From positions 204,049-268,048 of the forward strand of contig CAYOCT010000001.1 in NCBI GenBank assembly GCA_964402555.1: a DNA stretch of 64,000 nt. The letters are read 5' to 3'. Under the pieces are notes generated by a model, which did not search any database, was not told the DNA's origin, and worked only from the letters and a program-made list of their open reading frames with translations. This DNA comes from an uncultured Nitrospiraceae bacterium (GTDB lineage Bacteria > Hydrogenedentota > Hydrogenedentia > Hydrogenedentales > SLHB01). The position numbers and the translations under genes were made by a program. Position 1 is the first letter of the stretch. Every line of letters begins with the position of its first letter. Below, piece after piece: positions 3,091 through 26,593 of the stretch.

Positions 3091-4532
3091 TCTGCGCCTT
3101 TCTTGCTTATCGCCATGATGGATTGTGGCGGCTTCACGAACACGGCATTGTCTTGGGCCTCTTTCGTGCTGATCGGTGGCTGCAGCACTAAGGCCTGTCT
3201 GAACAAGATGACCAGAACATCCTTCTTAGAGAGTTCTTGGATATCGGCCAGACTATAGACGGTTCGCTTGGCCACAAGTCGAGTGATCTCTTCCCAAGAT
3301 TTTGAGACAACGGCACGTTCCACGACGCCAATTGCGATGAGACCTTGGTGCTGCTGGGACCGATAGAACACAATGACGCTGCCCGGCTCAATTGTCCGAA
3401 TCGAAGAATGGCAGAGGTACGCCTTGCGAATCGCGCTGCCGAATGGGTGCTCTCCATGGAAAAGATCACCTTGTACAGCGGACTCGGGGAAGAGTAGTCG
3501 CGCGAACCCCGGCTGAATGGGAACAAGAAAAGTTCGCCCCTCAGCCATCTCAAGATAGTGTGGGCCGTATCTTACGTGACGCTGAAGCCCATCAAGTTGA
3601 CCAGTCTCCGCAGCAACAACCTGCATAGGCTTCGCGAGAATCAGTTCGCCCAACTCTGTCTTAGAAGGCACGTCTTGAAATCCGCATTCTCGAAGAAGAT
3701 CCAATAGCTCGTCATGCTTTCGGAAGACGGTAACAAAGAGCCAATCGAACCAATTGCCACAGGAGTATTCGAAGACTGTTTTCAAGAGCAGTTCGCCGTA
3801 CTTCAATCCCTGAAAACGCTCTGCCACCTTGAACGAACACACTTTCAAGACCTTACCCGTCAAGGGCGCAGGTGGCTCGCTCTCGTGCTTGATAATGCAG
3901 AAAGCAGCAATTCCCTCCGAATCACCGGGCACGAACCAAGCCTGACGCTGCTGCCGCTTGCACTTCACGAGCCACTTGTCGAAATCCGCGTAATCCTGTC
4001 GGAAGGTCTCAAAGATAGTATCGTTGGCATCGAGAGCGTGAACAAGTGTAGCCTCCACGACGGGCGGCGGACTGGACGGCTTGGCCGCGAGGTCCTCAAT
4101 CACCTGGATGCTATCGAGCAGGCTGAGGGTACGGTCGGACAATCCAAGCCGCTTTGCTTTTCGTTGCAACCCCACGTCTTGCGTGACCAACCAATCGACG
4201 GCGTCAGCACGAAGGGCCGCCAGCATCAGATTGTCAATGTAATCGTTGCTGCCAGCTAACGCCTTTCCAACGATGCGTTCCACCTCGTCAGGGATAGCTG
4301 GCGGGTGCGGTAATTCGGCGTACTTCTTAAGCAACTGCACGCGAAGTGTGCGACGGTCTCCGTCCTTGTCTTTTGAAAGATCGACGAGGGAGGCCGGGTG
4401 CACGCATATCTGGTGTGCGTTTTCCGAAATAAGGCGAACGAAACGGACCGCGGGCTCTGTTGTCGCCTCAACATCGGCAGGCGATGTCGGTTCAAGCGGA
4501 ATCAGGATATTTGTGTCAACGAGGAATTTCAC
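3063..4532 (-). CDS. PIN-domain protein with a C-terminal alpha/beta domain of unknown function
   Basis: N-terminus MKFLVDTNILIP (PIN-like). GTG start preceded by AAGGTGG. Overlaps both neighbours. Confidence 0.5.
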   Translation of the reverse strand: MKFLVDTNILIPLEPTSPADVEATTEPAVRFVRLISENAHQICVHPASLVDLSKDKDGDRRTLRVQLLKKYAELPHPPAIPDEVERIVGKALAGSNDYIDNLMLAALRADAVDWLVTQDVGLQRKAKRLGLSDRTLSLLDSIQVIEDLAAKPSSPPPVVEATLVHALDANDTIFETFRQDYADFDKWLVKCKRQQRQAWFVPGDSEGIAAFCIIKHESEPPAPLTGKVLKVCSFKVAERFQGLKYGELLLKTVFEYSCGNWFDWLFVTVFRKHDELLDLLRECGFQDVPSKTELGELILAKPMQVVAAETGQLDGLQRHVRYGPHYLEMAEGRTFLVPIQPGFARLLFPESAVQGDLFHGEHPFGSAIRKAYLCHSSIRTIEPGSVIVFYRSQQHQGLIAIGVVERAVVSKSWEEITRLVAKRTVYSLADIQELSKKDVLVILFRQALVLQPPISTKEAQDNAVFVKPPQSIMAISKKGAEWLRTKLKI

Positions 4533-10258: not shown

Positions 10259-13200
10259 CCGCCTTCCCCCTCAGCGTCATCATCGTCAGCTGTATCCTGG
10301 CCCAGCCGAAATTTGATGTCGAAGTTGATGATGAAATCCACTTCCTCATCATTGAAGCCAAAGTGGTCGGCCAAGATGACATCTATCTTGTCGATATCTG
10401 ACTTAGACAAGCGCGGGTAGAATTCGTCGTATTCTACGACACCTGTTCTTTGGTAAGGAATCCGTCTCCGCGCTCGGTTCTTACGGAGACTCTTCATCAG
10501 ATTTTGTCCGGCCGCGCGCAACGGCCCCCCGTACGACTTCGCCAAGGCAGGCAAGTCTAGAGGAAAATCGAGGATAATTTCCCTGCCGCAGTGATATACG
10601 TCTGAGTACGTCACAAACCACTGATAGAACAAGCTGCTGTTGAGGATGGCAACCAACGCGGCCTGTTGTGCCTCAGCGGCAGCGCCAAAGATCTTGTAGT
10701 CTTCGGAACGTTTGATGCCGTCCCTTTCGCTGGAGAAATAAGGCACAAAATCCATCGCCTTAACAAAATGGGCTACTATTCTGTGACTGTACACTTCATG
10801 ATGTGACCTCTCGCTCACAAACAGGCCGAGAGACCTTTTCTCAGAACACAGCTTCGAGAGGAGCGAGAGATGAGTATCCGAATAAATCTTCGGTCTAAGA
10901 CTGACTCGGGTAAGGTGACTGCCGGATTGTGTGTACTGAATTAATGGAAAGAGCGAATCACGACCATCGGCGTACCAACGCTGGAAACGTGTGCTGAATT
11001 CAGTTGGCGAAAGCAAGTTCTTTGCTTGCAGCAAAATCGCCAGGCGGAATTTTACGCCGTTGAACAAAATAGACGGATGAGCGTCGCCTGAGTAAAAGCT
11101 TGCATGCGTCAGCAAGTGGCTGTTCACCCAAGTATCCCGTAGTGGTCGCATGCGTTCGGTAGCCACACAGCTTACCGGGACAATCATTCCAAACTTGCCG
11201 CGAGCGGATAACAATGCATACGACCGCTCGCAGATCACAGTGTAGACATTTCCACATGAAAGAGTTGCGTAACTGGCCGGAATCGGCCGGTAACCTTGAA
11301 CTTTGCTCCATTCTACATAGGGTGGATTGCCAATGATAACGTCAAAACCGCCGCCGTTCATGATGCTGTAGAACTCGATGAACCAGTGAAAGGGATGATA
11401 TGAATTCACCCACTTGCGGAACTCGGTTTCATAGGCCTTCTTCGGCCTGACGCTTTCGACTCCAATTCCATATTCTTCCGCAAGATAACGATTCAGTTCG
11501 TTCTCGAGATCTTGAAGGCGCCTCTGAAGCTCCAGCTTGTGTTCCGTGGGTACCGATGTATCACCTTCGGTCTGACGCTTTCGGAATGCATCAAAAGTTT
11601 GTTGCAAGTCAGCTGCCTTAACAGTAATTGTCTCCATCTTGTCGTCAAAGTCGAACTTGCTCTTGACGGTCTTTTCGACTTCGAGGTAGGTGGCATAGCC
11701 AATGAGCGTGTTTCCGGAGCGGATGTTGAAATCTATGTCCGGCAGGGGCTCAATGCCAAGGTTTTCTCGTACGGGATCTGGATTGACTTGTGCGGCGAGC
11801 TTGAGGAAAAGGCGGAGCTTACAGATTTCGACGGCCTCGTCCATGATATCGACACCGTAGAGGTTGTTGATCACTATGGACTTGAGGACGAAATAGCGTC
11901 GGTTAGGGTGTTTGTCCATTTCGTCCAGCACCTCGCGGAAATCGCTGAGCTTCTTCGGGCTGTGCTTCCGTTCGGAGTGCTCAAGGTCTTCGAGTAATCC
12001 CTGCATGCCGTCGAGGCAGGCGTTGTAGAGCGGTTCGAGGATGTTGAGCGCGGCGAAGAGGAAGGCGCCTGACCCGCATGTGGGGTCGAGAATCGAGATG
12101 CGTGCAAGCGCCTTCCAGAACGCGCGGACGAGTTCCGGTCCTTCGCTGTTGACTATGGCGTCATCGGCAAACTGCTCGATGTCGAGGTTCAGGGTAACGA
12201 AGTCGTTGATTGCCTGGATTCCGCCAGCGGCCAGCTTCTCTCGCAACTCGAGACACCGTTTCCGTCGTTCGGCATACTCACGCCAGGTTTCCGTAGGCAA
12301 CGCGAGATCTTCGCCATCAGGACCGGGGACGCTGGCTTGTCCCAGGTTGTACTGCCTGTTGAACATCCGTTTCTTCGGGTCGGCCATCCCCTCGCGAACG
12401 AACTCGGGCAACGTGGAATCCGGAATAATCGTTCCATCAGCGTTGACGACGCCAGAACGCACGGCCGGATAGATGTAGCGGTCGGCGTCATCACGAAGCA
12501 AGCGCCAGATGCCACCGTCCGGCCTAAATGCGATGGGACATTCCTTCTGTGCGGCGTCGAACAGATACGGGATGATGGTATTGCGACCGATATAGCCGGT
12601 GATGTCCTCCTTCGTGTAATAGGCGCCCATCTGCTTCTGGTTGATGTACTTCTCGAAGATGTAGCCGAGAACGTCCGGATTGATTTCGTTGTCGGCACGC
12701 AACGGGCGTTCGTCGAGGTGCCAGGTGTAGCTGTCGAAGAAGTCGAAGATGGCCACGAATGCTTCATCGGGGATGTCGATGCCGCTATACTGCCGCTCAA
12801 GCTCGTGCACATCGAACAGGCCACCGTTCAGGTAAGGCACTCTGCCCAAGAGCGCTTCAAGGTCGCGCGCGCGGTCTTTGGCCGGCTTGCCAAGTCCTTC
12901 GTGGAACAGACGCAGCAGGAAGAAACGATAGAATGAAAGGAATTTGCCCTTGCCTCGGCGTTCCTGGACCATCTTGAGGCGGTTGCGGAGGTAATCGGGA
13001 TCGCCGTCGAGGAATCCACGCTTCTGGATGAAGTAGACAAACATCATCCGGTTGAGCATGAGCGAGGCGTACCAGTCACGATCCGTCCGCTCGTCAATGC
13101 CTTGGATGAATTTGAGGAAAGTCTGGTGCTCTTTCTTGAAGCGGTCATAGAAGCGTTTCGTGACGCGCTCGACATCCAGCGCCGAACGTGTACGCGCCGT

Positions 13201-13653
13201 CACGTCGGTGATGGTGAGGCGCTCTTCTTCCTCAAGCTCGAATGCCAGCCCTTGAAGTTTCTCGACGAGCGCCTGCCCGGTCTGATCCGCACGATACGTA
13301 TGTTCGCGGCACGCGGCTCCTTTGCCTGCCTGGCGCTTGACCCATTGCCAGATCTGGATCGTCTGCTTTGCATCGGTGAAGACGATCAGGTGCTCGTGGG
13401 CGGACTTGCGAGCCTGTTGTTCAATCTTGCGGCGAAGGGGATACGGTGGCGCCGCACCGTCCATGCTGGGACTACACACGTAGACGACCATGCCGCATTT
13501 CTCGGCGAGCGGTTTCAGAACGTAATCGGCGCCGGCAACGGAAACAACAAGAGGCTGCGCCGCATAGCAGTTCCAACCAAGTTCCTCAATCAATAGCCCG
13601 GTGAGGTCAAACTCTCTGAGGCGTTTGCGGACGTTCTCGACACTCACAGGCAT
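10255..13653 (-). CDS. N6-adenine DNA methyltransferase, Eco57I/PglX/type IIG-like, 1132 aa
   Basis: Motif I ILDPTCGSGAFL, motif IV VIIGNPPYV, and the conserved YLNGGLFD segment. Confidence 0.8.
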   Translation of the reverse strand: MPVSVENVRKRLREFDLTGLLIEELGWNCYAAQPLVVSVAGADYVLKPLAEKCGMVVYVCSPSMDGAAPPYPLRRKIEQQARKSAHEHLIVFTDAKQTIQIWQWVKRQAGKGAACREHTYRADQTGQALVEKLQGLAFELEEEERLTITDVTARTRSALDVERVTKRFYDRFKKEHQTFLKFIQGIDERTDRDWYASLMLNRMMFVYFIQKRGFLDGDPDYLRNRLKMVQERRGKGKFLSFYRFFLLRLFHEGLGKPAKDRARDLEALLGRVPYLNGGLFDVHELERQYSGIDIPDEAFVAIFDFFDSYTWHLDERPLRADNEINPDVLGYIFEKYINQKQMGAYYTKEDITGYIGRNTIIPYLFDAAQKECPIAFRPDGGIWRLLRDDADRYIYPAVRSGVVNADGTIIPDSTLPEFVREGMADPKKRMFNRQYNLGQASVPGPDGEDLALPTETWREYAERRKRCLELREKLAAGGIQAINDFVTLNLDIEQFADDAIVNSEGPELVRAFWKALARISILDPTCGSGAFLFAALNILEPLYNACLDGMQGLLEDLEHSERKHSPKKLSDFREVLDEMDKHPNRRYFVLKSIVINNLYGVDIMDEAVEICKLRLFLKLAAQVNPDPVRENLGIEPLPDIDFNIRSGNTLIGYATYLEVEKTVKSKFDFDDKMETITVKAADLQQTFDAFRKRQTEGDTSVPTEHKLELQRRLQDLENELNRYLAEEYGIGVESVRPKKAYETEFRKWVNSYHPFHWFIEFYSIMNGGGFDVIIGNPPYVEWSKVQGYRPIPASYATLSCGNVYTVICERSYALLSARGKFGMIVPVSCVATERMRPLRDTWVNSHLLTHASFYSGDAHPSILFNGVKFRLAILLQAKNLLSPTEFSTRFQRWYADGRDSLFPLIQYTQSGSHLTRVSLRPKIYSDTHLSLLSKLCSEKRSLGLFVSERSHHEVYSHRIVAHFVKAMDFVPYFSSERDGIKRSEDYKIFGAAAEAQQAALVAILNSSLFYQWFVTYSDVYHCGREIILDFPLDLPALAKSYGGPLRAAGQNLMKSLRKNRARRRIPYQRTGVVEYDEFYPRLSKSDIDKIDVILADHFGFNDEEVDFIINFDIKFRLGQDTADDDDAEGEGG

Positions 13654-16600
13654 GCATCATCTCCCTTGAACAGCCCCATGGAACAAATGATCCGCGGTTC
13701 GTGCGTTTGCGCTTCTTCCTCAACAAGGCACAGACGGCCTTCTTCGCGCAAAACCATGACCAATTCGGCCAGCTTCTGGTCGTCAATACCGAGTCGCAGT
13801 TGACGATTCAGGGCATCGGTTGCCACCTGACGGAGCGGGTATCGATAGATCTCATCAATGACGCGGTAAAGTTCGGGCGTCTCGAAAAGCGTTCCCTTGA
13901 TCTCCTCGGCATGCCGTTTGAGCCGTTCGTAAGTTCTAAACCGCGCGCCGCTGGGCCGGCCCAATTGCCCGCCGACCTGGCGTTCTTCCGTAGCGATATG
14001 CTGGATTGCTTCCCGCACGAGGGGGTGATGCCTGGGATTACGCGGAATAGCCGGAGTTTCGAGAGGGCATTCGGCGATTCGGAGGATTTCAAACTGGGAT
14101 TCTGTGATGCTGGCGCCGCCTGTGTCCACGTAAGCGAGGGCGTCGTTGTCTTCCGCCGTACGGGCATAGACGAGCACGCCTTCCGGCTTGCGTTCGGTCG
14201 GGGCGTGCGCGCGAGTTGAATAGGCCACGTCCGGCAGTTCGGGCACGATCTTTTCCAGTTCCGGATTGGAGTCAATGGCGTTCTTCCAGATCTGGTATGC
14301 GTATGACGCCAAGTCGACTTCCGCGTCATCCTCGCCGTCAAGGATACCGGCCTTTTCGGTAAACAGGTCGCGGACGCTCTGCTCGTTGTTATCGTCCTCG
14401 AAGAACGACTCATCCGTACCGACCACTTCGGCATTTTCGCGAAGTCTGCTGCGAACCCTGGAACGCAAGCGAATGATGCGCTCGACTCCCTCCGCGGGAA
14501 GGAATGAGTAACAGAGTATGTCCTCCGCTTTCTGACCGATACGGTCCACGCGGCCGGCGCGCTGGATCAGGCGAATGATAGCCCACGGTAGATCAAAGTT
14601 AACGACTATGGCGCAATCTTGCAGGTTTTGGCCTTCGCTCAAGATATCCGTGGCAACCAGCACGCGCAATTCCTGGGCCGGCGATATCCGGTCTCGCTTG
14701 TTGTTGCTGACCGGACTGAACCGCCACGCCAGTTCGGTTGGGTTCGCGGAATCGGAGGTTGCGCCCGCCACACCGTCTATACCCCTCGCCTTAAGCTGAG
14801 TCTCAAGATAGCGGACCGTATCCGCGAACTGTGTGAAGATTAGGACCTTCTCCATGGCATGTCGTTCGGCAAGCAGATCGACCAACGCCTGCAATTTGGC
14901 ATCGCGCTCTCGGTCCCATTCTCCTGTCCGGGCCAGCAGTTTGAGTAAGGCTTCCGCGTCCGCGCGCAGATGCTTGGCGAGTGCTTCAGTGAACAAGCCA
15001 GGCCTAATCCATTTGAAAGACTTGCGATGCTCTGTTTCGTAATCAACGTATACTTCTGCCGCACGACGCCGGAAATCAGCTTCATTGCGAAGCGTCGTCC
15101 CTGGGACAGAAGCGATAGGCTGGTCGTCGTTGTTGTCGGCGTCATCGGCAAACAGGTCGCTCGTGGCTTCTTCGGCATCCTCGTCAGTCATCCGAGTATC
15201 AAGCATTTCGGAAGTCTGTGAACCCAACGGCAGAGGCAGGCCGTTCTCGATGGCATGCAGGTAAACAAAATTACGCAGAATGTGCCGCTCGACGGACTGA
15301 ACGAAAGCCATGCCGCAGCTTTCAAGGCGTTTGAACAGGTTCGTGCGGCAGAATCCCATGAGCCGTTTCCCGGCGCGAGACAAGTCTTGCAGCACTCGCG
15401 CCTCGGCCTGGGTGGGCGGTTGCTCAGGAGTCGGCACTTCATAGTTGCCCAAGCCATAACGGGGCAAGTACAGTCCGTTGATGATATCCACAACGGGCTT
15501 GGCGTAAAGCTGGGCGTACTGATCGTTCTTGTCTTTGTCGTTGATTGTAAACTTCACCGTCCTTGGGAGACGTTCCGGGAAATATGAGCGCGTGCCGTCC
15601 TCAAACGTCAGATAACACCTGCCATTATCCGCGTCGACGGTAGCGTAATTGTCCTTGATGAAGCTGCGGGTCCGGCGCACGAGGTAGAGGCGCATCAAAT
15701 CGCGCCAGTCGTCGGCATGCTCGCTCTTCTCGAACGCGGAAAGCGACCTGACCGAACACTGATGCCGCCGGATGAATTCGGTCTCGCTGATTTGACGCAA
15801 TAACGCTTCCGGCCGGATTCCGATGTCACGATCTTCTTCAACGAACAGGCGCAGCTGGCTGGAGAGATCGAGGTAGGTCTTGTTGTACGGCGTGGCGGTC
15901 AGCAGGATGCACTTGCTGTCGTTCGCGCGGATGTAGTCCTGGATGACGCGGTAGCGGCGGCCTTCACGATTGCGCAGGTTGTGGCTCTCGTCCAAGATGA
16001 TGAGACGATAACGCCGGAGGTCAGGCAATTGTCTGATGACGCGGCTAATCGAGAGCACGCGTCCGCGAAGGCGATACTGTTCCCGGTAGTCTTCCCACAT
16101 GGAGACGAGATTCTTGGGACAGATGATTAGGGTTTCGAGATCGTGGTCATCCTCGAAGATGCGCGCAAGTGCGGTGGCCATGAGCGTCTTGCCGAGACCG
16201 ACGACGTCACCCACGAGCACGCCGTTTCGGCGCAGCAGATGATGCGCGGCGATCTTCACGGCAGCGACCTGGTAGTCGAAAAGCTTGTTGCCGAAATCCT
16301 TCGGAATGCGGAACTCAGACAGGCCGGAACGCGCCTCCCGCGACAGGTGATAGGCGATCTTGATGTAGATTTGATAAGGCGGAATCGGTTCCTCGCGAGC
16401 CCAGCTTTCGTCGATAATCGCGACCAACTCATTCGAGACGTCGATGCAGAAGCGGTCGTTCCAGCGATCCTCAAACCACTTCGCGAGTTTCTGGCACGCG
16501 TCGAGGTCCATGACGTCGATGTTGAGCTCGCCCTGATTCACGAGGCCGGCGAGCGTCAAGTTGCTGCTGCCCAGATATCCCACGATGGGGTTGATCGGGT

Positions 16601-17048
16601 CGGGACGGAAGAGCAGGTAAAGCTTGGCGTGAAGCGGATGCCGCAGGAAGAGCTTCACCACGACCTTCTTGGCGCGGATTTGCGCCACGAGGCGGCGAAG
16701 CGCTTCCTCATCTTCATTGGTGGGTGTGCCAAACGTAAGTTGCTGGCGAAATTCCTGCGCAAGCTGCTTCTTGAGGCGTGCCGCGGTAGCGTTGTCTATT
16801 TCGGCGCCGCCGTCGACGACGCTCATTGCTTCGCGTAACTGGTCTTGCGGTAAACGCTGCATTCCCACGAGAAGCCGGCAGCATTGCCCCGCATCGCTTC
16901 CTGCCCATTTCTCGACCTGGGTGTGAAGCTGCTTCCATCCGCGCAGATTGAAATAGCCGACGCAAAAGTCGGCCCGGTCGGAACGCGCGAGGGTTTCCTG
17001 CAGTGCCTTGGATAGATTGGCCTCGATGTTGTCGAAAACTCTAGGCAT
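13644..17048 (-). CDS. PLD-family nuclease domain fused to an SNF2-family helicase, 1134 aa
   Basis: HxK PLD motif HPLHAKLYLL. Helicase motifs GLGKT and DESHNLRN plus a C-terminal helicase block (NFDLPW). Overlaps the methyltransferase start by 10 nt. Confidence 0.8.
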   Translation of the reverse strand: MPRVFDNIEANLSKALQETLARSDRADFCVGYFNLRGWKQLHTQVEKWAGSDAGQCCRLLVGMQRLPQDQLREAMSVVDGGAEIDNATAARLKKQLAQEFRQQLTFGTPTNEDEEALRRLVAQIRAKKVVVKLFLRHPLHAKLYLLFRPDPINPIVGYLGSSNLTLAGLVNQGELNIDVMDLDACQKLAKWFEDRWNDRFCIDVSNELVAIIDESWAREEPIPPYQIYIKIAYHLSREARSGLSEFRIPKDFGNKLFDYQVAAVKIAAHHLLRRNGVLVGDVVGLGKTLMATALARIFEDDHDLETLIICPKNLVSMWEDYREQYRLRGRVLSISRVIRQLPDLRRYRLIILDESHNLRNREGRRYRVIQDYIRANDSKCILLTATPYNKTYLDLSSQLRLFVEEDRDIGIRPEALLRQISETEFIRRHQCSVRSLSAFEKSEHADDWRDLMRLYLVRRTRSFIKDNYATVDADNGRCYLTFEDGTRSYFPERLPRTVKFTINDKDKNDQYAQLYAKPVVDIINGLYLPRYGLGNYEVPTPEQPPTQAEARVLQDLSRAGKRLMGFCRTNLFKRLESCGMAFVQSVERHILRNFVYLHAIENGLPLPLGSQTSEMLDTRMTDEDAEEATSDLFADDADNNDDQPIASVPGTTLRNEADFRRRAAEVYVDYETEHRKSFKWIRPGLFTEALAKHLRADAEALLKLLARTGEWDRERDAKLQALVDLLAERHAMEKVLIFTQFADTVRYLETQLKARGIDGVAGATSDSANPTELAWRFSPVSNNKRDRISPAQELRVLVATDILSEGQNLQDCAIVVNFDLPWAIIRLIQRAGRVDRIGQKAEDILCYSFLPAEGVERIIRLRSRVRSRLRENAEVVGTDESFFEDDNNEQSVRDLFTEKAGILDGEDDAEVDLASYAYQIWKNAIDSNPELEKIVPELPDVAYSTRAHAPTERKPEGVLVYARTAEDNDALAYVDTGGASITESQFEILRIAECPLETPAIPRNPRHHPLVREAIQHIATEERQVGGQLGRPSGARFRTYERLKRHAEEIKGTLFETPELYRVIDEIYRYPLRQVATDALNRQLRLGIDDQKLAELVMVLREEGRLCLVEEEAQTHEPRIICSMGLFKGDDACL

Positions 17049-18265: not shown

Positions 18266-18344
18266 AACCCCCAGGCCCTTCTTGCCGCTTTGTGTATGGA
18301 ACGAAGCCAGGACATTCCTTGGCATCAACGACTGGAGGAAGCAA

Positions 18345-19286
18345 ATGGCCCGTCGTCTGGACAAACACGAGATCGAATTGTTGCGTCAACTTGCAGACTT
18401 TAGGATGCTGACGCTCACGCAGACCAGCGTTCTGAGTTCCAAAAGCCACCGCACGGCGCGGCGCAGAATGAAAGAACTGGTAGACCATGGCTCTGCCGAA
18501 CTTCTGCCCGTATCAATCTCGCAGCGGCGTGGTCGTCCGGAGGGCGTCTTCGGCGTCAGCCAAGAAGGCCTTGCCGCGCTCCGCTCTGAGAACGTTTTGC
18601 CAAAGGCAGCCGAGTTCAGTCAGGTTGGCGGCAAAGCGCTCATCGGCCAGCATGGCCATCAGCTTCTTCTGAATTGGTGCCGGATTCATCTCGATCATCT
18701 AACCAGGACTCTTCCACGGCTCGACTGTGCCTTTCTCTCGTCGAAGTCACCGTTTGATCTGGATCGCGACTCGGGCGGTCCGGTCGTTCGGGATTTCGTG
18801 CCTGTGTCAGAAGGGAGCGAGCCGGACGAGAAATGTCATTTTATCCCTGACGGCGTCTTCATCCTCACCGACTCCGAGATAGCCAAGTCATTTCTCTTTT
18901 TCTTGGAGGTGGACTTGGGTTCGGAGCCCCTCGATAGTTCAGAATCGGGACGGGCCGCCATCGTCCGGAAGATTCAGACGTACCAGTCGTACTTCGAGTG
19001 CGAACGGTACAAACGATACGAAGAAACCTGGCAAGTCAAGCTCAATGGGTTTCGTATGCTCTTCGTGACGTCCACTTCCAGTCGGATGACGTCGCTATGC
19101 CGAGTGATTCAGTCCATGCCTCCGCCTCCGTCTGATTTCATCTGGGCGACCTGCCAAGACAGCCTGTTCGCGGAAGGAATTTCCGGAAACATCTGGGCTC
19201 GTGGCGGCAAGCATGATCTCGCCCGACAATCCATCCTGGGCGGCTTAGCCATGAAGGCCCCGATCCCGGAACTCGCGGTCTCGTAG
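18345..19286 (+). CDS. Replication-relaxation family protein
   Basis: MARRLDKHEIELLRQLADFRMLTLTQ N-terminus. RBS GGAGGAAG precedes the ATG at 18345. Confidence 0.7.
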   Translation: MARRLDKHEIELLRQLADFRMLTLTQTSVLSSKSHRTARRRMKELVDHGSAELLPVSISQRRGRPEGVFGVSQEGLAALRSENVLPKAAEFSQVGGKALIGQHGHQLLLNWCRIHLDHLTRTLPRLDCAFLSSKSPFDLDRDSGGPVVRDFVPVSEGSEPDEKCHFIPDGVFILTDSEIAKSFLFFLEVDLGSEPLDSSESGRAAIVRKIQTYQSYFECERYKRYEETWQVKLNGFRMLFVTSTSSRMTSLCRVIQSMPPPPSDFIWATCQDSLFAEGISGNIWARGGKHDLARQSILGGLAMKAPIPELAVS

Positions 19287-19994: not shown

Positions 19995-20501
19995 CTACCG
20001 GTATGAAGGGCGAGGTGAATGACGATAGCGAGAGGTGGACGGGCTTCGGATGCCGTATTGAGGTCTGGATTGAACGGGGTCGTATTCTCTGTTTCGGATT
20101 CTGAGCGGGTAATGATTGGGCGGTAGCGGCAGACGTTTGAAGAGGTTATCGGGCCAGTCTTGAATAAGGTCCCAGGGATAGAGCGAAATAACGTGCAGGT
20201 TGTTGGCGGCATAGGCAGCTTTCTTGATGGCAGTTCGGATGTCATAGTCTTGGTTGCCAACGCGGCCGTAGTACTCGATATGAAGGTTGAATTCGGGAAG
20301 GTAGAAGTCGGGGCGGAGGGTTCGGTCTTTGCCATTGTCGTTGACGGTGACCCTTGGTTCGTAGATGAATGGGATGCCGTAGTCGTCGAGCGTGCCCGCT
20401 ATGTGACGTTCGCCCCGTGACCTGAAGCGGTCCGAGGTTTGGTTTTCAGTCCTAGTCCTTTCCTCAAGTGCGGCCTGCATTCCTCTTCTGGGCGTTCTCA
20501 A
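19995..20501 (-). CDS. DUF559/Vsr-like PD-(D/E)xK endonuclease-fold protein with a low-complexity tail
   Basis: YGIPFIYEPRV...RPDFYLPEFNLHIEYYG matches the DUF559 core pattern. Confidence 0.45.
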   Translation of the reverse strand: MRTPRRGMQAALEERTRTENQTSDRFRSRGERHIAGTLDDYGIPFIYEPRVTVNDNGKDRTLRPDFYLPEFNLHIEYYGRVGNQDYDIRTAIKKAAYAANNLHVISLYPWDLIQDWPDNLFKRLPLPPNHYPLRIRNREYDPVQSRPQYGIRSPSTSRYRHSPRPSYR

Positions 20502-20708
20502 GCACCGGTTCTATAAAAAACCTTCGGTGGATGTTCATGCAAACCAGTTAAGATTGCCCGCGCCGTCATGAGCGTCTTGGGGTTCCCCACCCACCCGCCC
20601 AGCTCAGGGGCTCGACCTTCGGCGAGCCCCTGTCTTCCCGCCCACCCAACCCCAAAGGGTGTGGACGTGCTTCGCGCGTCCTGACCGATAGGACGTGGCG
20701 GCGCCCCC

Positions 20709-20773
20709 CCGAAGACTTGCCGGTTATCATAATCCGAACCCACTGTCCAGTGTTCCGTGTCGGAAAACTGATG
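20709..20773 (+). repeat. Conserved two-hairpin structured element, copy 1 (5' part diverged)
   Basis: GAAGACTTGCCGG...GTAATCCGAACCCACTGTCC followed by hairpin CAGTGTTCCG-TGT-CGGAAAACTG and then GATG. Confidence 0.55.
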
Positions 20774-21169
20774 TTTGACTTGGCCAGAGGGAAGAAGCAG
20801 AACGAAGGTCGCCTCTTTTACCCGCATTCATTCCTTCGCAAGTTCGCAATCATCGAGGCTTGGGCATGCGTCAAGCCGCGAGCTTGCACCACGTCTTTCG
20901 AGTGTCATTCCAAGGCGAGACCCGGTTCTCTGTCGGACGGATGCACCGATGCACGATACATATCCGCGTTCTGTAAATGAGTCACGGTGTTCATCGGCGG
21001 CGTGTTTTTTTCCTGCTTCCAGCCGCCAGTTGCCTTTCTTATGAAGCCAGCCTTAAGGGCTTTGGCCGGCCCTTTGTGCCCTGTTACGTTCGTCTTTCAT
21101 TTTCCTCATTTTCTACCTCCGGTGATTTGTTCCAGCAGGGGTGTGAACAAATCACGGAGGTAAACGAAA

Positions 21170-21451
21170 ATGAAAAGTCAATTAGTGAACGTACAGGGTA
21201 AAGGGCCTATAGCCAAAGCTAAGGCTGGCAAGTTTCAAGTCAGCATCTGGCACTGGAAGAAAATCATACCGCCGCCCGATGAAATGAAAGACCTTTTCGC
21301 AGAACGCGAATTCGATATATATCGTGCGTGCATCCGGTTCAGTCAGTGGAACCGGGTGACTCGCTCATGGAATGAACAATCAATTTGGTGCAGCATCGAC
21401 GACTTGCGCAGCCTTGTTCAAACCATCGATGAACTTAACGCGCAGGAATGA
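21170..21451 (+). CDS. Small hypothetical protein, 93 aa
   Basis: Strong RBS GGAGGTAAACGAAAATG. Distant resemblance to the 27461..27736 product. Confidence 0.5.
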   Translation: MKSQLVNVQGKGPIAKAKAGKFQVSIWHWKKIIPPPDEMKDLFAEREFDIYRACIRFSQWNRVTRSWNEQSIWCSIDDLRSLVQTIDELNAQE

Positions 21452-21516
21452 ACGCGGGAGGGCAACCTTCCGCTTCTTCCTCTCTGGCTTTTTTGTGGTC
21501 TATGCGACACGGGAGC

Positions 21517-21596
21517 GGGTGTCGGATTACCCGAAGACTTGCCGGTCCTCGTAATCCGAACCCACTGTCCGGTTTTCCGTGCCGGAAAACCGATGA
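21517..21596 (+). repeat. Conserved two-hairpin structured element, copy 2
   Basis: GGGTGTCGGATTACCCGAAGACTTGCCGGTCCTCGTAATCCGAACCCACTGTCC, then a perfect 10-bp hairpin CGGTTTTCCG-TGC-CGGAAAACCG, then GATG. Confidence 0.6.
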
Positions 21597-21849
21597 GGGC
21601 GCCTATAGGGTCTGGCGACCTTGTGATAATCGCGCAGGGAATACCAACCCCTGCCTACCGCGGAAATCGCGATTTCCACCCCGGCGCGGAATCCGCTCTT
21701 CCCGCGCTCGGTCTCGCGCAACAGGGCCGATGTATGGGGCAAGGCGGCGCAGAGATATCGCAGAGATATCGTAGATTCTTCTTGGGCTAGATTGTCCTGT
21801 TCTCAACCTACAGGCTTCACCTCAACGATTTTCATTCCCCGTCATGAGA

Positions 21850-22221
21850 ATGAAAATCGTTCAACGAGGTGAAACCATGAGAACAGAACTAAACCCAAGA
21901 AGAATCCGCGTTCAGGTTGAACGCGCCGCAGCACAGAAAGACATCGACCCAGAAGAACTCTGGCTCGACCAAGATATCGCGCCGGAAGAGCTTATACGGC
22001 TAGACCCGCTCGACATCACCTATGAGATTGTCGCGCAGGCAGAAAAGCCTGAGAGTACAGACCCGCTCTTTCTGGGAATTTCCGGCAGGGAGTTAAGTCT
22101 CAGGCAGGAAGAGCAGGAACTCAAGCAGATGAGGCATGAGCTTCAGGCTTCCCATGGCCAGTCCGAAGAGACCGCGCTCATGAACTGGTTTACTCGTGTG
22201 CGGAAAGCAGGCTCATCATGA
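21850..22221 (+). CDS. Small acidic hypothetical protein (paralog A, MKIVQRGE...)
   Basis: Paralogous to 23371..23706. The ATG lies inside the right arm of a 20-bp inverted repeat. Confidence 0.55.
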   Translation: MKIVQRGETMRTELNPRRIRVQVERAAAQKDIDPEELWLDQDIAPEELIRLDPLDITYEIVAQAEKPESTDPLFLGISGRELSLRQEEQELKQMRHELQASHGQSEETALMNWFTRVRKAGSS

Positions 22222-22234
22222 GCCTGCTTTCTTA
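22205..22234 (+). terminator. Rho-independent terminator-like hairpin overlapping the paralog A stop
   Basis: GCAGGCTCAT-CATGAGCCTGC palindrome followed by TTTCTT. Confidence 0.5.
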
Positions 22235-22240
22235 CATCGC

Positions 22241-22309
22241 AGAGCGGGCGTGAGATTCTGTGGGAATCTCAGCCCACTGTCCGGTTCTCTTGACAGAGAA
22301 CCGATGCAA
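22241..22309 (+). repeat. Conserved two-hairpin structured element, copy 3
   Basis: AGCGGGCGT, then hairpin GAGATTC-TGTGGG-GAATCTC, then GCCCACTGTCC, then hairpin CGGTTCTC-TTGACA-GAGAACCG, then GATG. Confidence 0.6.
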
Positions 22310-22391
22310 TTCACCGACTTGCGTGCGGTTCCTTGTGGCGCCGCGATTCTCTGTCCTTTCAAATGAACAGAGAATCGCGGAGGTGTTGCAA

Positions 22392-22877
22392 ATGAGTCTC
22401 GTCAAGTTAGAAGAACTTCATTGGGGCAGTCTATCGCTCAAAGTTCTGCGTTCTGGGGTCGATGGCAGTCTTTTCGTTGCTCTGGACCCTATTGGAAAAG
22501 GGGAAAGCATTCGTGGCCCTTTCCTTTCAGAGCAAGACCTCAGCCGGGTAGTGTCTTTGGTAAGGCGCCACGGAAACTCTTCGCCTGAACCCGAGTTTCC
22601 GCTGGAGAGAGTGCCGCACTCCTCTCCGTCCTGTGATGCGCGCGCAGCAGAGACCGAAATCAAAGAGGCCGTCCGAAGAGCACAAGACCCGAGTGTGTCC
22701 ACGAAAGGCATAATCACGGTGCTTCCAACCATGCCTCCGTGGAGGTATCGTCACACATGCCCTGTCTGCGGGTGCCACGTCCAATCGCGGCTTTGTCTCG
22801 GAAGCACAGAGTTGAAGCTCTGCGCAGGATGCGAGCATGTCGAAAGCGTGTGTGTCAACGCGACTCGTGAGGGATGA
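22392..22877 (+). CDS. Hypothetical protein with C-terminal CxxC...CxxC zinc finger
   Basis: RBS GGAGG before the ATG at 22392. C-terminus HTCPVCGCHVQSRLCLGSTELKLCAGCEH. Confidence 0.5.
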   Translation: MSLVKLEELHWGSLSLKVLRSGVDGSLFVALDPIGKGESIRGPFLSEQDLSRVVSLVRRHGNSSPEPEFPLERVPHSSPSCDARAAETEIKEAVRRAQDPSVSTKGIITVLPTMPPWRYRHTCPVCGCHVQSRLCLGSTELKLCAGCEHVESVCVNATREG

Positions 22878-23077
22878 ACATGCCGCTCAAGACCGAGTGT
22901 GATTCAAATGGGAGGACGCGTCTCCGTTGGACCTGTCCGCTGTGCATTTACGAACTCAGGTTCCATGCGCACGATGCAGGCGAAGTGGCTTTCTTTGTCG
23001 TGCGGCACCTCTCTGGCGTGCATGCGTTGGCGCATTCAGATATGCGGTTGTTGGAACCGGAACTGGGTCTTGACTGA
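22874..23077 (+). CDS. Small Cys-containing hypothetical protein, 67 aa
   Basis: 4-bp overlap with the upstream gene. Contains CPLC. Confidence 0.35.
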   Translation: MNMPLKTECDSNGRTRLRWTCPLCIYELRFHAHDAGEVAFFVVRHLSGVHALAHSDMRLLEPELGLD

Positions 23078-23370
23078 CGCGCCCAATTGGCGTTGTGCTT
23101 GGCTGACGGGGTACGGCAAGCCGACCCGAAATGAATTTCAGGCCCGTGTGTTCAGCTTGTGTTGTTGAGTGTCGTTCTTCAGGGAACCTGTTTTGCGGCG
23201 TTATACCACGGAACGCGAACCTCTATTGGTTCTGTTCCTCTTCAGTGTTGTTCACCTCAACGATTTTCAAGGCGTTCGCGGGAAAACCGGCTTCATTGTG
23301 ATTTCCCCTTTGAGGACCGGTCAGGTATTCCCTGAAATCACATGACCGGATTTCCCCGCGCCACCTCACC

Positions 23371-23706
23371 ATGAAAATCGTTCAACGAGGTGAACAAACA
23401 ATGCAAACAGAACCGAACCATGAATTCAGCCGCGTTCAGGAAGGACGCGCCGCGAATACCAGACTAGACACCGAAGAGCTTTGGCTCAATTCGGATATGG
23501 TGCCCGAGAAATACATCGAATTGGCCGAACACCCGGAGCTTGCCGACCCCGTGCTTGCCGGCCTTCCTTCACGCGAAATGAGCTTGCAGGAAGAGTCGCT
23601 GTTCTTGGAGCAAGTGAAGGCCGAGCTTCGCGCCAAGCACAATGCAAATCCAATTCAGCCTGCCGACCGACGGGGCGGCGCGTTTTCAGAAGAAGGCTCT
23701 AATTGA
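23371..23706 (+). CDS. Small acidic hypothetical protein (paralog B, MKIVQRGE...)
   Basis: Paralogous to 21850..22221. The ATG lies inside the right arm of an inverted repeat (left arm 23250-23269). Confidence 0.55.
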   Translation: MKIVQRGEQTMQTEPNHEFSRVQEGRAANTRLDTEELWLNSDMVPEKYIELAEHPELADPVLAGLPSREMSLQEESLFLEQVKAELRAKHNANPIQPADRRGGAFSEEGSN

Positions 23707-23720
23707 GCCTTCTTTCTTTT
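23692..23720 (+). terminator. Rho-independent terminator-like hairpin after paralog B
   Basis: GAAGGCTC-TAATT-GAGCCTTC followed by TTTCTTTT. Confidence 0.5.
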
Positions 23721-23727
23721 GGACCCA

Positions 23728-23812
23728 GAAGCGGGTGTCGGATTGCCCGAAGACTTGCCGGTCTTCGTAATCCAAACCCACTGTCCGGTTCTCTTGACAG
23801 AGAACCGATGGT
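23728..23812 (+). repeat. Conserved two-hairpin structured element, copy 4
   Basis: GAAGCGGGTGTCGGATTGCCCGAAGAC-TTGCCG-GTCTTCGTAATCCAAACCCACTGTCC, then CGGTTCTC-TTGACA-GAGAACCG, then GATG. Confidence 0.6.
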
Positions 23813-23918
23813 GGGGTTGTCAGTCTCTTCTTGAGCGAACCGCCTTCAGCCAACAGCGGGCGCCAGGGGTTCCGGGAATCTTCCAAGGATTGGGAAGATT
23901 CCCGGAGGTGTTTACAAG

Positions 23919-24224
23919 ATGGTTTGTGGAGATTCGTGTGCGGACGGCGAATTAGATGACCTTCTACATCAGCTTCCGGAGCCGAAGCAAGCTGACTATG
24001 GATTGTGTCCTCATTGCGACAGCACAAAAGGGCGATGGTGGGGATTTAGCGTCCGAAAGGACGGGACATTCATACGCCGTCGAATGTGTCGTTGGTGCAA
24101 GAGAACCTATACGGGGGCATGGTATCGTAACGTCCACAGAAGTGTTAACCTGAATGAAGCAAAGAGAATCATGCGCTCTAAGAAAGACTTCACGGCTTTC
24201 GAGGACGACCTTGTATTCCAATGA
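23919..24224 (+). CDS. Small Zn-ribbon protein, 101 aa
   Basis: RBS GGAGG. CPHC...CRWC cysteine pairs. Confidence 0.5.
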   Translation: MVCGDSCADGELDDLLHQLPEPKQADYGLCPHCDSTKGRWWGFSVRKDGTFIRRRMCRWCKRTYTGAWYRNVHRSVNLNEAKRIMRSKKDFTAFEDDLVFQ

Positions 24225-24493
24225 ACGCGCGCTTCTGCTCAGGCTGGCGGTGAGACATGAGCTTCCAGTCATCGCACAAAGACGACTATGGACTGTTTCG
24301 GACGGAATGGGGATTGTCGATGTGAGAGCATTAGGAGGCTTGCTGTCGGAACGGCGCGGAATAGCGACTCCGAATCTCCTTGCGATTCGGAGGTTCAATT
24401 GAGTCGCCGCTAAAGCGGCGACGCTCAGAGACTTCCTTACCTTCCCGGGCCGTTGCTCTTATGTCTTCATCGCAGGACACGAAACAGTCTTGG

Positions 24494-26593
24494 CTATATT
24501 TCTGCGGTTGACTTGAAAGACAGACGTGCAACCGCAAGACTAGGAAGTGACTTCCCCAAGGCTAAGACCTTTGGACTGTTTGTCACGACCCAAATATGCT
24601 CGTAGCCGGCCGCCAATGTCTTTTCGAGATTCTTACGCGCATCGCTCTTCCCGGTCTCGACAAGCACGGCCAGCATCCTGCCGTTCAAGGTCGCGTGCAC
24701 GTCCACGATCAGATCGTCGGCTACGCGAAATTCCTTGTGGACTTCCCATGCTTCAGACTCCAGTCTCTGGGCTGCCCGGTCTACCCAATATCTATGCTCG
24801 ATGCCGCCATGCGTGGGCTGGAGAAGCGGACCGAGACCATGGGATCGGCATAACGCCGTACCGGATGGTGTGAGGTCGAAGAGCTTCATGGTCGAAGTGC
24901 CGGTAAAGACCGTGACGGGAGCGAGCGCCCCTCTTTCTTCCAAAGCCCTGAGTGCAGCCGCGCCTTTTCGCCTGCTGGCCCGGAGCCGCTGCACTCGCTG
25001 GACCACTCCCTGGAACGGGTGTTGAAGGATGTCCTCTAACATCTCCACCTCGAGCGGAGTCAGTGCGGTAATGCCTATCTGCAGTTCTTTTCTATTAGGG
25101 GTGGTGGTCGGGGAAACATGTTCCGATCTCGTTGAGAATGTTTGAGTGGAGGGTGATCTCTCAGGGTTTATCTGGTTCTCTTCCGCGTGCGGAATCCCGC
25201 CCAATGGTCTGCCCTCCGTCCCGGCGGCATGGAATCGCGCGGTATCGGCGAAATAGGTCGTCTTTGCCATGTGTCGGCGGATATCTTCGTCTGTAACCTT
25301 CCCTTTGGCGATAGGCCGGTGCTTCAGCCTGATGTGAATAGGATCTGGCCACCGGGGGACGCGCACGATGGCCTCGCCCACCGGCAGCCTGCCCAACTCA
25401 TCCTTGGCCTCGTCTTTGAGGAGCATGGCCTGTGCGGTGCTGGATACGTCCCGCTGGTGCTTGGTATGGAAGGCCAAGGTCGTGGCTTGGTTTCCAAACA
25501 CAGCCACCGGAACGACGGATGCGTTTTGCGTGGCGAGGATCACCGATTCACCAAGTTCCCTGACTTCGCGCAAAGCTACATGTATGACGGGTTCACTGCC
25601 GTCTCCAACACCGGGCGGAGCACGCAGGAGGTGATGCGCTTCTTCAATCAGAATGGCGTGTTTCAAGGACTCCCTGTCCACATTGTTGTTCATGCGGTAC
25701 TGAATGATCCAGAGCAGAAGTACTTCTGAAATAAGGGTTTGTTCCGCTTGATTTAGCAGGTCCAGCTCCAGAACAACCGACTCTGTTAGGAGGTCCATGA
25801 GTGACGTGGAGTCTGCCTGGCAGAAAACCTCGGCCGCATTACCAGTGCTGATACTTTTGATCGCCCTCTGAGCGCTGTCCATCCACATGCCCTTTCGGCC
25901 TCTGGCCGGCTGCTCTTCAAGCAGTCGCGCCACGTCGCGGAACGTCGGCCACCTGTTCTCCGCAGCCGTCTTCCTGTATGCGTCGTCGAGTGCCGTGACG
26001 AGAAGACTCTCGCTTCCAGCCCCTTGGCAAAATGCGTGACTCAAAGCTCCTATGACCTTTTTGGCCCAGACCTCGGCGGACGTACCGGGCGGAGGCGTCA
26101 AGGGATTCATCTTGAACGGGGACGTTCGGCTGTCACCCACTGTGAACACGAGAACTCGCGACTTGTAGTCCTGCAGCAGACCGCGAAAGGTGCGCTTGAA
26201 ATCACAGAGCAGGAACGGAATAGAGGCTTTCATCAAGCCGTCGAGAATCAGGGCGATGCCGTTGGACTTGCCACAGCCACTTGAACCATAGATTCCGACG
26301 TGACGAATCAGCTCTTCGTCCCTCAATCCGAACAGAAAAGAATCCTTGCCGGCATATCGAATATGTCCCAGGTCGATATCGCCCAGAGCCCTTTCCGGCG
26401 GAGGCGGTGGAAACAATCCCACAGCCCCTCCGGAAGGAACGTCCCTCAGGGTCAGCGCGGCGTACGCCTCGAACATGCACTCTATGTCGCGCCTTTCTTT
26501 GGCGTCGCTAATCAGGTAGGAGCGCCAAAGACGATTCGTGCGTTCCTCTCCGATGACCGGCGCCAGCATTCTCAGAATGTCTCGCGCGGTCAT
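24494..26593 (-). CDS. FtsK/HerA-superfamily P-loop ATPase (DUF87-like) with C-terminal wHTH and nuclease-like region
   Basis: Walker A GIYGSSGCGKS. Walker B ILIEEAHHL (DEAH-type). ATGA overlap with the upstream gene. Confidence 0.7.
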   Translation of the reverse strand: MTARDILRMLAPVIGEERTNRLWRSYLISDAKERRDIECMFEAYAALTLRDVPSGGAVGLFPPPPPERALGDIDLGHIRYAGKDSFLFGLRDEELIRHVGIYGSSGCGKSNGIALILDGLMKASIPFLLCDFKRTFRGLLQDYKSRVLVFTVGDSRTSPFKMNPLTPPPGTSAEVWAKKVIGALSHAFCQGAGSESLLVTALDDAYRKTAAENRWPTFRDVARLLEEQPARGRKGMWMDSAQRAIKSISTGNAAEVFCQADSTSLMDLLTESVVLELDLLNQAEQTLISEVLLLWIIQYRMNNNVDRESLKHAILIEEAHHLLRAPPGVGDGSEPVIHVALREVRELGESVILATQNASVVPVAVFGNQATTLAFHTKHQRDVSSTAQAMLLKDEAKDELGRLPVGEAIVRVPRWPDPIHIRLKHRPIAKGKVTDEDIRRHMAKTTYFADTARFHAAGTEGRPLGGIPHAEENQINPERSPSTQTFSTRSEHVSPTTTPNRKELQIGITALTPLEVEMLEDILQHPFQGVVQRVQRLRASRRKGAAALRALEERGALAPVTVFTGTSTMKLFDLTPSGTALCRSHGLGPLLQPTHGGIEHRYWVDRAAQRLESEAWEVHKEFRVADDLIVDVHATLNGRMLAVLVETGKSDARKNLEKTLAAGYEHIWVVTNSPKVLALGKSLPSLAVARLSFKSTAEI

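Follow-up and report, generated by a model that had tools for sequence, protein, structure and literature searches.

Among the described signals closest to the subject of this report is the primosome assembly site of the phiX174 type (n'-pas or ssiA; that of ColE1 is described in PMC3167613), an intergenic, strand-specific sequence of ~55–80 nt that host proteins read as folded single-stranded DNA in a replicon with a single-stranded stage. The single-strand initiation (ssi) signal of phage G4 is built of GC-rich hairpins, three in all, which lie 5' of a primase start trinucleotide, CTG; the annotated G4 primer (3970–3997) starts at this CTG, 3 nt past the GC-rich hairpin I. Frpo elements are repeated, orientation-specific hairpins beside an origin of transfer (oriT), among small genes of the establishment and anti-defence type; they carry –35, –10 and UP elements and lie upstream of genes on the template strand (PMC11541004). 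Here, we describe a two-hairpin repeat in a 64,000-nt stretch of DNA (the window; contig CAYOCT010000001.1, positions 204,049–268,048) from an uncultured Nitrospiraceae bacterium placed in the Hydrogenedentota by GTDB. The repeat is a discrete DNA module of 64–83 nt and a selected nucleic-acid structure rather than coding sequence, and small-gene cassettes bear it at their 3' end, right after intrinsic terminators, in a conjugative or mobilizable element with a MOB_C relaxase, one of a family of such elements in uncultured bacteria. Folded single-stranded DNA is its probable working form, and a role as leader of the Zn-finger genes is less likely; we give a probability of about 0.3 to the reading that it is an ssi signal.

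The window holds three full copies and one 5'-truncated copy, named w1–w4 in order (table below), all on the + strand, which is the strand of the surrounding small genes. The four copies proposed in an initial annotation of this DNA are thus where they had been placed, with limits shifted by 2–4 nt, and a reading of 20400–24300 bore out the proposed architecture (AGCGGGYGT, hairpin 1, hairpin 2, GATG). In full, the order is (G/A)AGCGGGYGT, hairpin 1, A-RCCCACTGTCC, hairpin 2 and GATG. The family was also recovered by a direct-repeat finder, and the core ACCCACTGTCC occurs four times in the window at ≤1 mismatch, compared to 0.77 expected. The arms GGATTAC/GTAATCC had been assigned to copies 1, 2 and 4; this stood for w2, whereas w1 has no left arm and is unpaired there, and w4 reads GGATTGC/GTAATCC with a G.T pair. 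A further pairing that had been missed, GGGY/RCCC (GGGT/ACCC in w2 and w4, GGGC/GCCC in w3), closes hairpin 1, so that hairpin 1 is a long bulged helix of 36–53 nt, here called P1. P1 is built on an outer stem, AGCGGGY/RCCCRCT, that is conserved, followed by a single bulged base, an inner stem that varies and covaries, and a tip that varies between a 3–5-nt loop and an additional stem-loop. A conserved unpaired linker, (A)CTGTC(C), connects P1 to the short second hairpin, P2, which in w3 and w4 is identical over 34 nt. Copy w1 retains only the right two-thirds of the repeat, its AGCGGGYGT and left arm of P1 being replaced by unrelated GC-rich sequence. Relative to shuffled sequences, w2–w4 folded well below the shuffles as RNA (z –3.1 to –6.0) and w1 no better than them; folding as DNA, calculated for w2 and w3, gave z of –5.2 to –6.9 on both strands.

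A covariance model, a search for further copies and a comparison with Rfam had been suggested as checks in the initial annotation, and all three were carried out. No known RNA family was matched: Rfam 15 gave nothing at gathering thresholds in the 64 kb, and at E ≤ 10 in 20400–24400 nothing meaningful overlapped the copies. A scan of the window showed no tRNAs. A blastn search of 20600–24300 (3.7 kb) against 72,556 public plasmid records found no match, and so none to known Frpo or ssi elements of enterobacterial plasmids. Pattern scans gave 5 matches in IMG/VR and 71 in the GTDB representative genomes, all of them chance matches without the hairpins. In metagenome contigs, a two-gap pattern scan returned 12 loci, four of them true (L084–L087, from one sample group, Ga03152xx) with five copies. 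The covariance model, R1, was built on eight copies; it scores the window copies at 66–108 bits (E 1e-12 to 6e-22) and, with filters off, finds no copy in the 64 kb beyond the four known. Homologs of the two flanking proteins, Replic_Relax and HerA-like, were used to fetch further loci; in these loci, R1 detected one copy in L094, one in L104 and two diverged copies in L097/L098, an element whose relaxase is just 49% identical. R1 found no copy in L089, L095, L096, L101, L105 or L106, of which L089 and L105 are close relatives. A degenerate copy was recognised by eye in L084, at the place that w2 holds in the window. L106 also has an isolated sequence resembling half a copy (9305–9347, – strand; TTGTCC-GGTTAATT..AATTAACC-CGATG; R1 E 0.065), which lies outside the array of small genes, beyond an IS110 transposase, and may be due to chance. 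The search thus added eight copies from metagenomic relatives, 12 in all. All 12 lie in the array, as does every true match of the metagenome scan, and all have the same orientation as the genes. As far as Rfam 15 and the public plasmid records can tell, the repeat is previously undescribed and matches no described family.

The 12 copies (four from the window and eight from relatives) were aligned by fitting to R1, and 93.5% of the cells pair, compared to 31–52% when partners are slid by 1–3 columns. Changes on both sides were found in 14 of the 24 pairs, and none of 500 column shuffles reached the observed values. RNAalifold, run on an independent MAFFT alignment of eight copies, predicted these 24 pairs too, with compensatory changes in 10. 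P2 is rebuilt nearly whole between copies (GGTTTTCCG.., GGTTCTCT.., GGTCTCG.., GCGTCTTTCCG..), and the inner stem of P1 occurs as CGGATTAC, GAGATTC, GCGATTTC, TCAAATTC or TTGCGC, each with its complement. Conversely, conservation extends over the P1 foot, the linker, the first P2 pairs and the bulged G plus T; GATG is conserved in the clade of the window and not in L097. G.U pairs are rare (7 of 278 cells). The earlier claim that covariation marks a selected nucleic-acid structure rather than coding sequence thus became stronger once homologs were aligned. Consistent with this, the overlapping open reading frames (ORFs) at 20717.., 21539.., 22260.. and 23719.. are translations of the motif, as had been proposed: they have in common only the peptide ..THCPV.. 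and diverge right after it, and the two that were compared with Pfam (20717.. and 21539..) gave no match. Several ORFs called over the repeat, for example one of 63 aa in L104, are therefore artefacts. Since the stems vary yet stay paired while the unpaired blocks are conserved, the repeat behaves as a single-stranded structure, not as a duplex protein site; a duplex operator is ruled out by the variable stems together with the variable spacing.

The position of the repeat follows a rule on its upstream side. Every full copy begins 11–17 nt past the intrinsic terminator (hairpin and T-run) of an upstream + strand gene, which belongs to an acidic ~110-aa family in 8 of the 12 copies and is a 93-aa gene in two and a 55-aa gene in one; w1 is the sole copy with no + strand gene upstream. 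Thus, w3 begins 11 nt past the terminator of a 114-aa acidic gene and w4 16 nt past the terminator stem of its 101-aa paralog. Downstream there is no rule. The Zn-ribbon genes that start at 22392 and 23919 lie 86 and 109 nt behind w3 and w4, within the 80–110 nt noted before; elsewhere the next gene is a different one, in L104 at a distance of ~440 nt, and behind the copies in L085 and L094 and copy b in L087 nothing comes but the HerA-like gene, which converges on the array and presents its 3' end. The proposal of a cis-regulatory leader upstream of small Zn-finger genes did not survive this comparison, the constant neighbour being the upstream gene with its terminator and not the downstream gene.

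The flanks show a second regularity. Eight pairs of copies have a homologous upstream flank, and in none of the eight is the downstream flank shared as well; one pair shares the downstream flank only. Flanks diverge at once before (A)AGCGGG and after GATG, even where P2 is identical (w3/w4, w2/L087b and L087a/b). The type of P1 tracks the upstream gene, whereas P2 types assort independently. In relatives with a single copy, it lies at the far end of the array, 55–60 nt from the HerA stop codon. Because the upstream flank is shared without the downstream flank, the repeat marks, as a pattern, a junction at which cassettes have been reassorted among related elements, and it travels with the upstream gene; the mechanism of the reassortment would be a separate matter, to which we return below.

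By analogy with the phage signals, we tentatively read the repeat as an ssi (priming) signal that is used when the array is single-stranded, either during conjugative entry into a recipient or on the lagging-strand template. The hairpins would stay free of single-stranded DNA-binding protein and would offer the GAAGCGG-type foot of P1 and the CTG 3' of P1 to the primosome or primase of the host. Synthesis of the complementary strand would then start directly behind the cassette, which would quickly become an expressible duplex. In favour of this reading, the element has a relaxase, a TrwB/TraD-like coupling protein and, at the start of the array, a region with an inverted repeat and direct repeats. 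The reading needs no partner encoded by the element, and scans of the window with Pfam, NCBIfam and PHROG (ORFs ≥150 aa plus the array genes) detected neither an integrase nor an HUH enzyme or a primase. The repeat is dispensable, being absent from L089, L095, L096, L105 and L106, as redundant signals read by the host would be. Terminal copies at the array's far end would agree with a priming signal just behind a cassette, and so would the decay of w1, which has nothing behind it to prime.

Compared to the phiX174 type, the repeat is of like length, is strand-specific and intergenic and, on the reading proposed here, would also be folded single-stranded DNA read by host proteins; its replicon, too, probably has a single-stranded stage. 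The F–G intergenic hairpin of phiX174, which we retrieved and folded, has the form GAAGCGG-stem-CCGCTG; the P1 foot is (G)AAGCGGG...CCC(A/G)CTG in 6 of the 12 copies and has GAGCGGG in the other six. We take the F–G hairpin to be the recognition site of PriA (n'); AAGCGG, which papers of the 1980s reportedly tie to PriA (n') sites, is to our knowledge the only motif common to them. There is no significant overall similarity; the repeat adds a second conserved hairpin and a linker, is present in several copies per element, and its host is not an enterobacterium. With the G4 type it shares GC-rich hairpins and a CTG just 3' of a hairpin, in this case 1 nt past P1 in 12 of 12 copies. All three G4 hairpins precede the CTG, whereas in the repeat one conserved hairpin also follows it; there is no sequence similarity, and a CTG within a conserved linker of 7–10 nt could be there by chance. 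Like Frpo, the repeat is an orientation-specific hairpin element repeated near a putative oriT among small genes of the establishment or anti-defence type. The Frpo hairpin is much longer (PMC11541004); the stems of the repeat, at 15–25 bp, are too short, there is no –35/–10 pair, and three copies have no gene downstream.

Several observations count against a priming signal. The resemblance to phiX174 and G4 comes to 6–7 nt and a trinucleotide, and GAAGCGG occurs 22 times in the window. The best alignment of R1 in the phiX174 locus is exactly the F–G hairpin, at a non-significant E of 2.5. In 10 of 11 copies the – strand gives the slightly better fold, since a conserved mismatch, C.A when read on the + strand, becomes G.T there; the ssi-like sequence features are those of the + strand. 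If 20.6 kb is the site of the oriT and the array forms the leading region, then the genes point away from the oriT, opposite to the F type, in whose leading regions the transferred strand is the template and genes point toward the oriT (PMC11541004). Finally, priming leaves unexplained both why 8 of 12 copies are tied to a single gene family and why the repeat lies so near to terminators.

The first of these two links counts for the strongest rival, which we regard as possible if not the one we would choose: that the repeat is an RNA element in a read-through or polycistronic transcript of the array, as an intercistronic or 3'-untranslated structure, bound by protein or processed by RNase, which would set the stability or translation of its neighbours (a leader of the downstream gene included). 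The gene orientation of 12 of 12 copies, the strong covariation and the tight link to the 3' end of one gene family all agree with this. A hairpin that sequesters the ribosome-binding site (RBS) is found on every array gene, so that post-transcriptional control is already a theme here, and just 34 free nt separate w3 from the next 5'-untranslated hairpin, so that any promoter of that gene must overlap the repeat. RNA roles nevertheless fit poorly with where the repeat starts and ends: good intrinsic terminators precede it, P2 is followed by GATG and variable sequence rather than by a T-run or terminator, no consistent promoter is present, and the terminal copies have no downstream gene. The loops are unconserved, which makes loop-mediated RNA contacts unlikely; G.U pairs are scarce, the conserved non-Watson–Crick pair is C.A on the sense strand, and no Rfam family matches. 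A separate small RNA, one of the options first offered, was likewise found unlikely, since the terminator leaves no room for a promoter behind it and neither strand has a T-run after hairpin 2; an independent small RNA, including an antisense one from the – strand, was dismissed for want of a promoter or terminator on either strand. The PeSL elements of T4-type phages, reportedly "mobile regulatory cassettes" that join a terminator stem-loop to an early promoter, resemble the repeat as short, repeated stem-loop modules between small accessory genes and as junctions for modular shuffling; the repeat has no recognisable promoter and sits after a separate terminator.

Reassortment at the repeat raises a rival that we consider unlikely, though it takes up the junctions directly, namely a folded-DNA recombination site resembling the attC of integrons. 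Such a site would define cassettes (gene, terminator and site) and would be cut and rejoined by the MOB_C relaxase or by a 168-aa endonuclease-like protein, as candidates. The likeness to attC is considerable. The repeat sits at the 3' end of a cassette in one orientation; its outer stem of 7 nt is conserved, one base is extrahelical, the inner stem covaries, the tip differs in structure and length, and structure is kept more strictly than sequence. As with attC, the sites are where cassettes are reassorted, with upstream flanks shared and downstream flanks not, and P2 assorts independently of a P1 that follows the upstream gene. The antisense strand folds better, as do attC bottom strands, and the nuclease-like gene, divergent from the array, is in the position of intI in an integron. 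What is missing is the enzyme. Among the window ORFs scanned and the called genes of the relatives there was no IntI or other recombinase of the tyrosine or serine type and no HUH enzyme, save for an unrelated serine-recombinase insertion in L101, and the 10 related loci whose genes were called yielded no Phage_integrase; relatives without the repeat still encode the relaxase and the nuclease-like protein. The cores are not RYYYAAC/GTTRRRY, the outer stem being AGCGGGY/RCCCRCT in all copies, P2 is an extra hairpin, and the cassettes carry their own terminators and 5'-untranslated hairpins. The truncation point of w1 lies inside P1 and not at a fixed crossover point, and ordinary homologous recombination between identical repeats of 34–83 nt would explain the reshuffled flanks equally well. 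Among the three options of the initial annotation, a recombination site fits best, if loosely, insofar as the repeat marks cassette junctions, and it fails insofar as no cognate recombinase was found. We think it quite improbable that the repeat belongs to an integrase-less, integron-like cassette system in which a PD-(D/E)XK enzyme (the MOB_C relaxase or the adjacent endonuclease-like protein) nicks and rejoins the site and so swaps small establishment or anti-defence genes beside the oriT; if a recombination site it were, this would be a new cassette-exchange system.

Two further readings carry little weight with us. According to the first, the repeat is a selfish miniature repeat without function for the element, like a miniature inverted-repeat transposable element (MITE) or a repetitive extragenic palindrome (REP), and inserts behind terminators. 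It is indeed a discrete unit with sharp ends, is patchy among close relatives and is homogenised within elements (L087a and b are almost the same, and w3 and w4 share P2), and, like REP/BIME and MITE-like repeats, it is a short intergenic palindromic unit 3' of genes. REPs are spread across the genome in either orientation and are partnered by a RAYT, whereas the repeat keeps to a single array and a single orientation. No copy was found elsewhere in the 64 kb, in the 20-kb flanks of the relatives or in unrelated metagenome and genome contigs, there are no target duplications or terminal inverted repeats, and no transposase partner was found. Compensatory upkeep across ~50% protein divergence of the host element argues for selection.

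Hardly more convincing is the idea that the MOB_C relaxase uses the repeat, on the – strand, as a secondary oriT or as a nick or termination site, or that the repeat is some other protein-binding site of the cruciform type. A hairpin with a conserved single-stranded stretch behind it is the layout of many oriTs and also of the repeat. The copy retained in single-copy relatives is the one at the far end, and if the – strand were transferred from there, the array genes would point toward the oriT in the manner of the F type; it is also the – strand that folds better. However, L089, L095, L096 and L106 encode the same relaxase family and have no repeat, so it is not an essential oriT; a better-conserved region with an inverted repeat and short repeats lies at the start of the array; and four nicks within 3 kb would fragment the transferred strand.

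The remaining candidates were rejected outright. A leader or riboswitch-like element of the Zn-ribbon genes is ruled out by the terminal copies and the constant upstream association. A sigma-70 promoter within or behind the repeat was dismissed because the TTGACA that w3 and w4 have in their P2 loop lacks a –10 at 16–18 nt and is unconserved in other copies, and sigma-54 or extracytoplasmic-function sigma spacing, judged by eye, is excluded by a distance between conserved blocks that varies from 20 to 37 nt. Small ORFs from the conserved GATG run in unrelated frames of 8–69 aa. Domains V/VI of a group II intron share the AGC at the P1 foot, but P1 has its bulge on the opposite side and a tip of varying length, and P2 has no bulged A. 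GGGTGT resembles the nic site of the F plasmid, but no HUH relaxase is present.

The features of the array and its borders are collected in the table. Replic_Relax belongs to the MOB_C relaxase superfamily (PMC5357655, Table 1), and the MOB_C relaxase has a PD-(D/E)XK fold (PMC3424549). The 168-aa protein next to it, which is encoded in all relatives with or without the repeat, matches Holliday-junction-resolvase, HNH and homing endonuclease families in PHROG (5e-8) and, weakly, T7 endonuclease I in Pfam. The order relaxase, nuclease-like gene, array, HerA-like ATPase, 164-aa gene and ParA is conserved among the relatives, and the named homologs come from metagenome-assembled genomes of Planctomycetota, Phycisphaerae and Hydrogenedentes. 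Elsewhere, the window encodes ParA, a Cdc6-like AAA+ protein, RadC (44396–44896) and the TrwB/TraD-like coupling protein (61493–63970).

Table. Coordinates, strands and characteristics of the repeat copies and of the features around them, in window positions
Feature	Position	Strand	Remarks
Replic_Relax (PF13814), MOB_C relaxase superfamily	18342..19286	+	domain scan
168-aa endonuclease-like protein	19995–20501	–	between relaxase gene and array, divergent from array
Candidate oriT-like region	20586..20647	+	array start; hairpin CAGGGGCTCG..CGAGCCCCTG between C-rich boxes CCCACCCACCC / CCCGCCCACCC
Copy w1	20708..20773	+	5'-truncated, degenerate; right half of hairpin 1, linker ACCCACTGTCC, hairpin 2 CAGTGTTCCG/CGGAAAACTG, GATG; R1 65.6 bits
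93-aa protein	21170..21451	+	followed by w2; pairing of gene and repeat also in L087, degenerate copy there in L084
Terminator-like hairpin and T/C-rich run of 93-aa gene	21454..21497	+	directly 5' of w2
Copy w2, long form	21514..21595	+	AGCGGGT-GT-(CGGATTAC..GAAGAC loop GTCCTC..GTAATCCG)-A-ACCCACT-GTC-(CGGTTTTCCG GTG CGGAAAACCG)-ATG; R1 108 bits; after terminator of 93-aa gene
Acidic 114-aa protein, isoelectric point (pI) 4.8	21877..22221	+	family most often just upstream of repeat; followed by w3
Terminator hairpin of 114-aa gene	22203..22236	+	14-bp stem overlapping stop codon; directly 5' of w3
Copy w3, short form	22243..22306	+	hairpin 1 GAGATTC/GAATCTC, closing GGGC/GCCC; R1 73 bits
Paralogous acidic 101-aa protein, pI 4.6	23401..23706	+	followed by w4
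Terminator hairpin AGAAGGCTC/GAGCCTTCT and TTCTTTT of 101-aa gene	23691..23720	+	directly 5' of w4
Copy w4, long form	23730..23810	+	hairpin 2 as in w3; R1 102 bits
HerA/DUF87, CedD/VirB4-like ATPase	24494..26593	–	convergent with array, forms its right end

The inverted repeat and short direct repeats at 20586–20647 make this region, from its sequence, a candidate oriT, and its hairpin and C-rich boxes are kept in most relatives. CCCRCCCRCCC boxes, always on the gene-sense strand, were found there and in L089 (12273–12330, 13853, 14530), L096 (11996, 13555, 14194), L097 (12079–12139, 12239, 13885) and L087 (3585–3595, – strand), and relatives without the two-hairpin repeat have extra C-rich boxes just past genes, where the repeat sits in the window. 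The complement of the boxes, GGGTGGGCGGGTGGG-like, could form a G-quadruplex. The boxes could be oriT repeats, Rho utilization (rut) sites or polar translocase signals.

Each small array gene has a strong hairpin directly 5' of its GGAGG RBS or including it (21116–21160, 21816–21873, 22341–22380 and 23871–23906), and the left arm of these hairpins contains a CCTCC-like anti-Shine–Dalgarno sequence, which suggests that they hold off translation until opened. Upstream of genes for the acidic proteins (23251–23394; also L084, L089 13330–13470, L097 13310–13460 and L104), an outer stem in the 5'-untranslated region, TTCACCTCAACGATTTTCA / TGAAAATCGTTCAACGAGGTGAA, surrounds a conserved insert of ~100 nt with its own hairpin (GTGATTTCC...GAAATCAC), which has been lost from the copy at 21816–21873; the stem and insert are possibly a separate structured leader. 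The AlphaFold model of the acidic protein, of low confidence (pLDDT 65, pTM 0.26) and so too poor to base a fold comparison on, showed a disordered acidic N-terminus and one long helix. The 101-aa Zn-ribbon protein (23919–24224 and 22874–23077) has a weak PHROG match to Lar-like restriction alleviation (E 0.05), and at 24257–24330 there is a remnant, broken by stop codons, of a third Zn-ribbon gene paralogous to 23919–24224 (MSFQSSHKDDYGLF..., cf. ..KQADYGLCPHC). The Lar-like match, the acidic ~110-aa proteins and RadC are hints that the array may encode anti-restriction or establishment functions.

The wider surroundings vary between relatives. Upstream of the HTH and relaxase genes lies a variable defence island (8291–17048, – strand), which here has an Eco57I-type methylase and an SNF2+PLD helicase; in L089, L094, L095, L096 and L097 the same island holds TIR/AbiJ, type I restriction–modification, patatin with E2/ThiF/JAB, Ser/Thr kinases or an SMC-like ATPase. 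In L101 (8611–10293), the HerA-like gene is cut to 509 aa and directly followed by a large serine recombinase, which looks like the insertion of another element. An IstB gene (IS21 helper ATPase) occupies 5–943 at the left edge of the window, so that an IS21-family element adjoins the region.

In kind, the repeat is a known thing, a structured cis-acting repeat in the accessory region of a plasmid or of an integrative and conjugative element; its sequence, its two-hairpin anatomy, its placement behind terminators and its lineage are new. Hardly any work exists on the conjugative elements of uncultured bacteria, Planctomycetota-like ones included, and the repeat gives them a clean, covariation-supported structured element linked to a variable array of small genes beside a MOB_C relaxase. 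Whichever function holds, R1 is a searchable marker for such arrays. If the repeat is a priming signal, it would represent a different route to the early expression of genes in the entry region, in which the cassette would quickly be made duplex rather than transcribed from single-stranded DNA as with Frpo.

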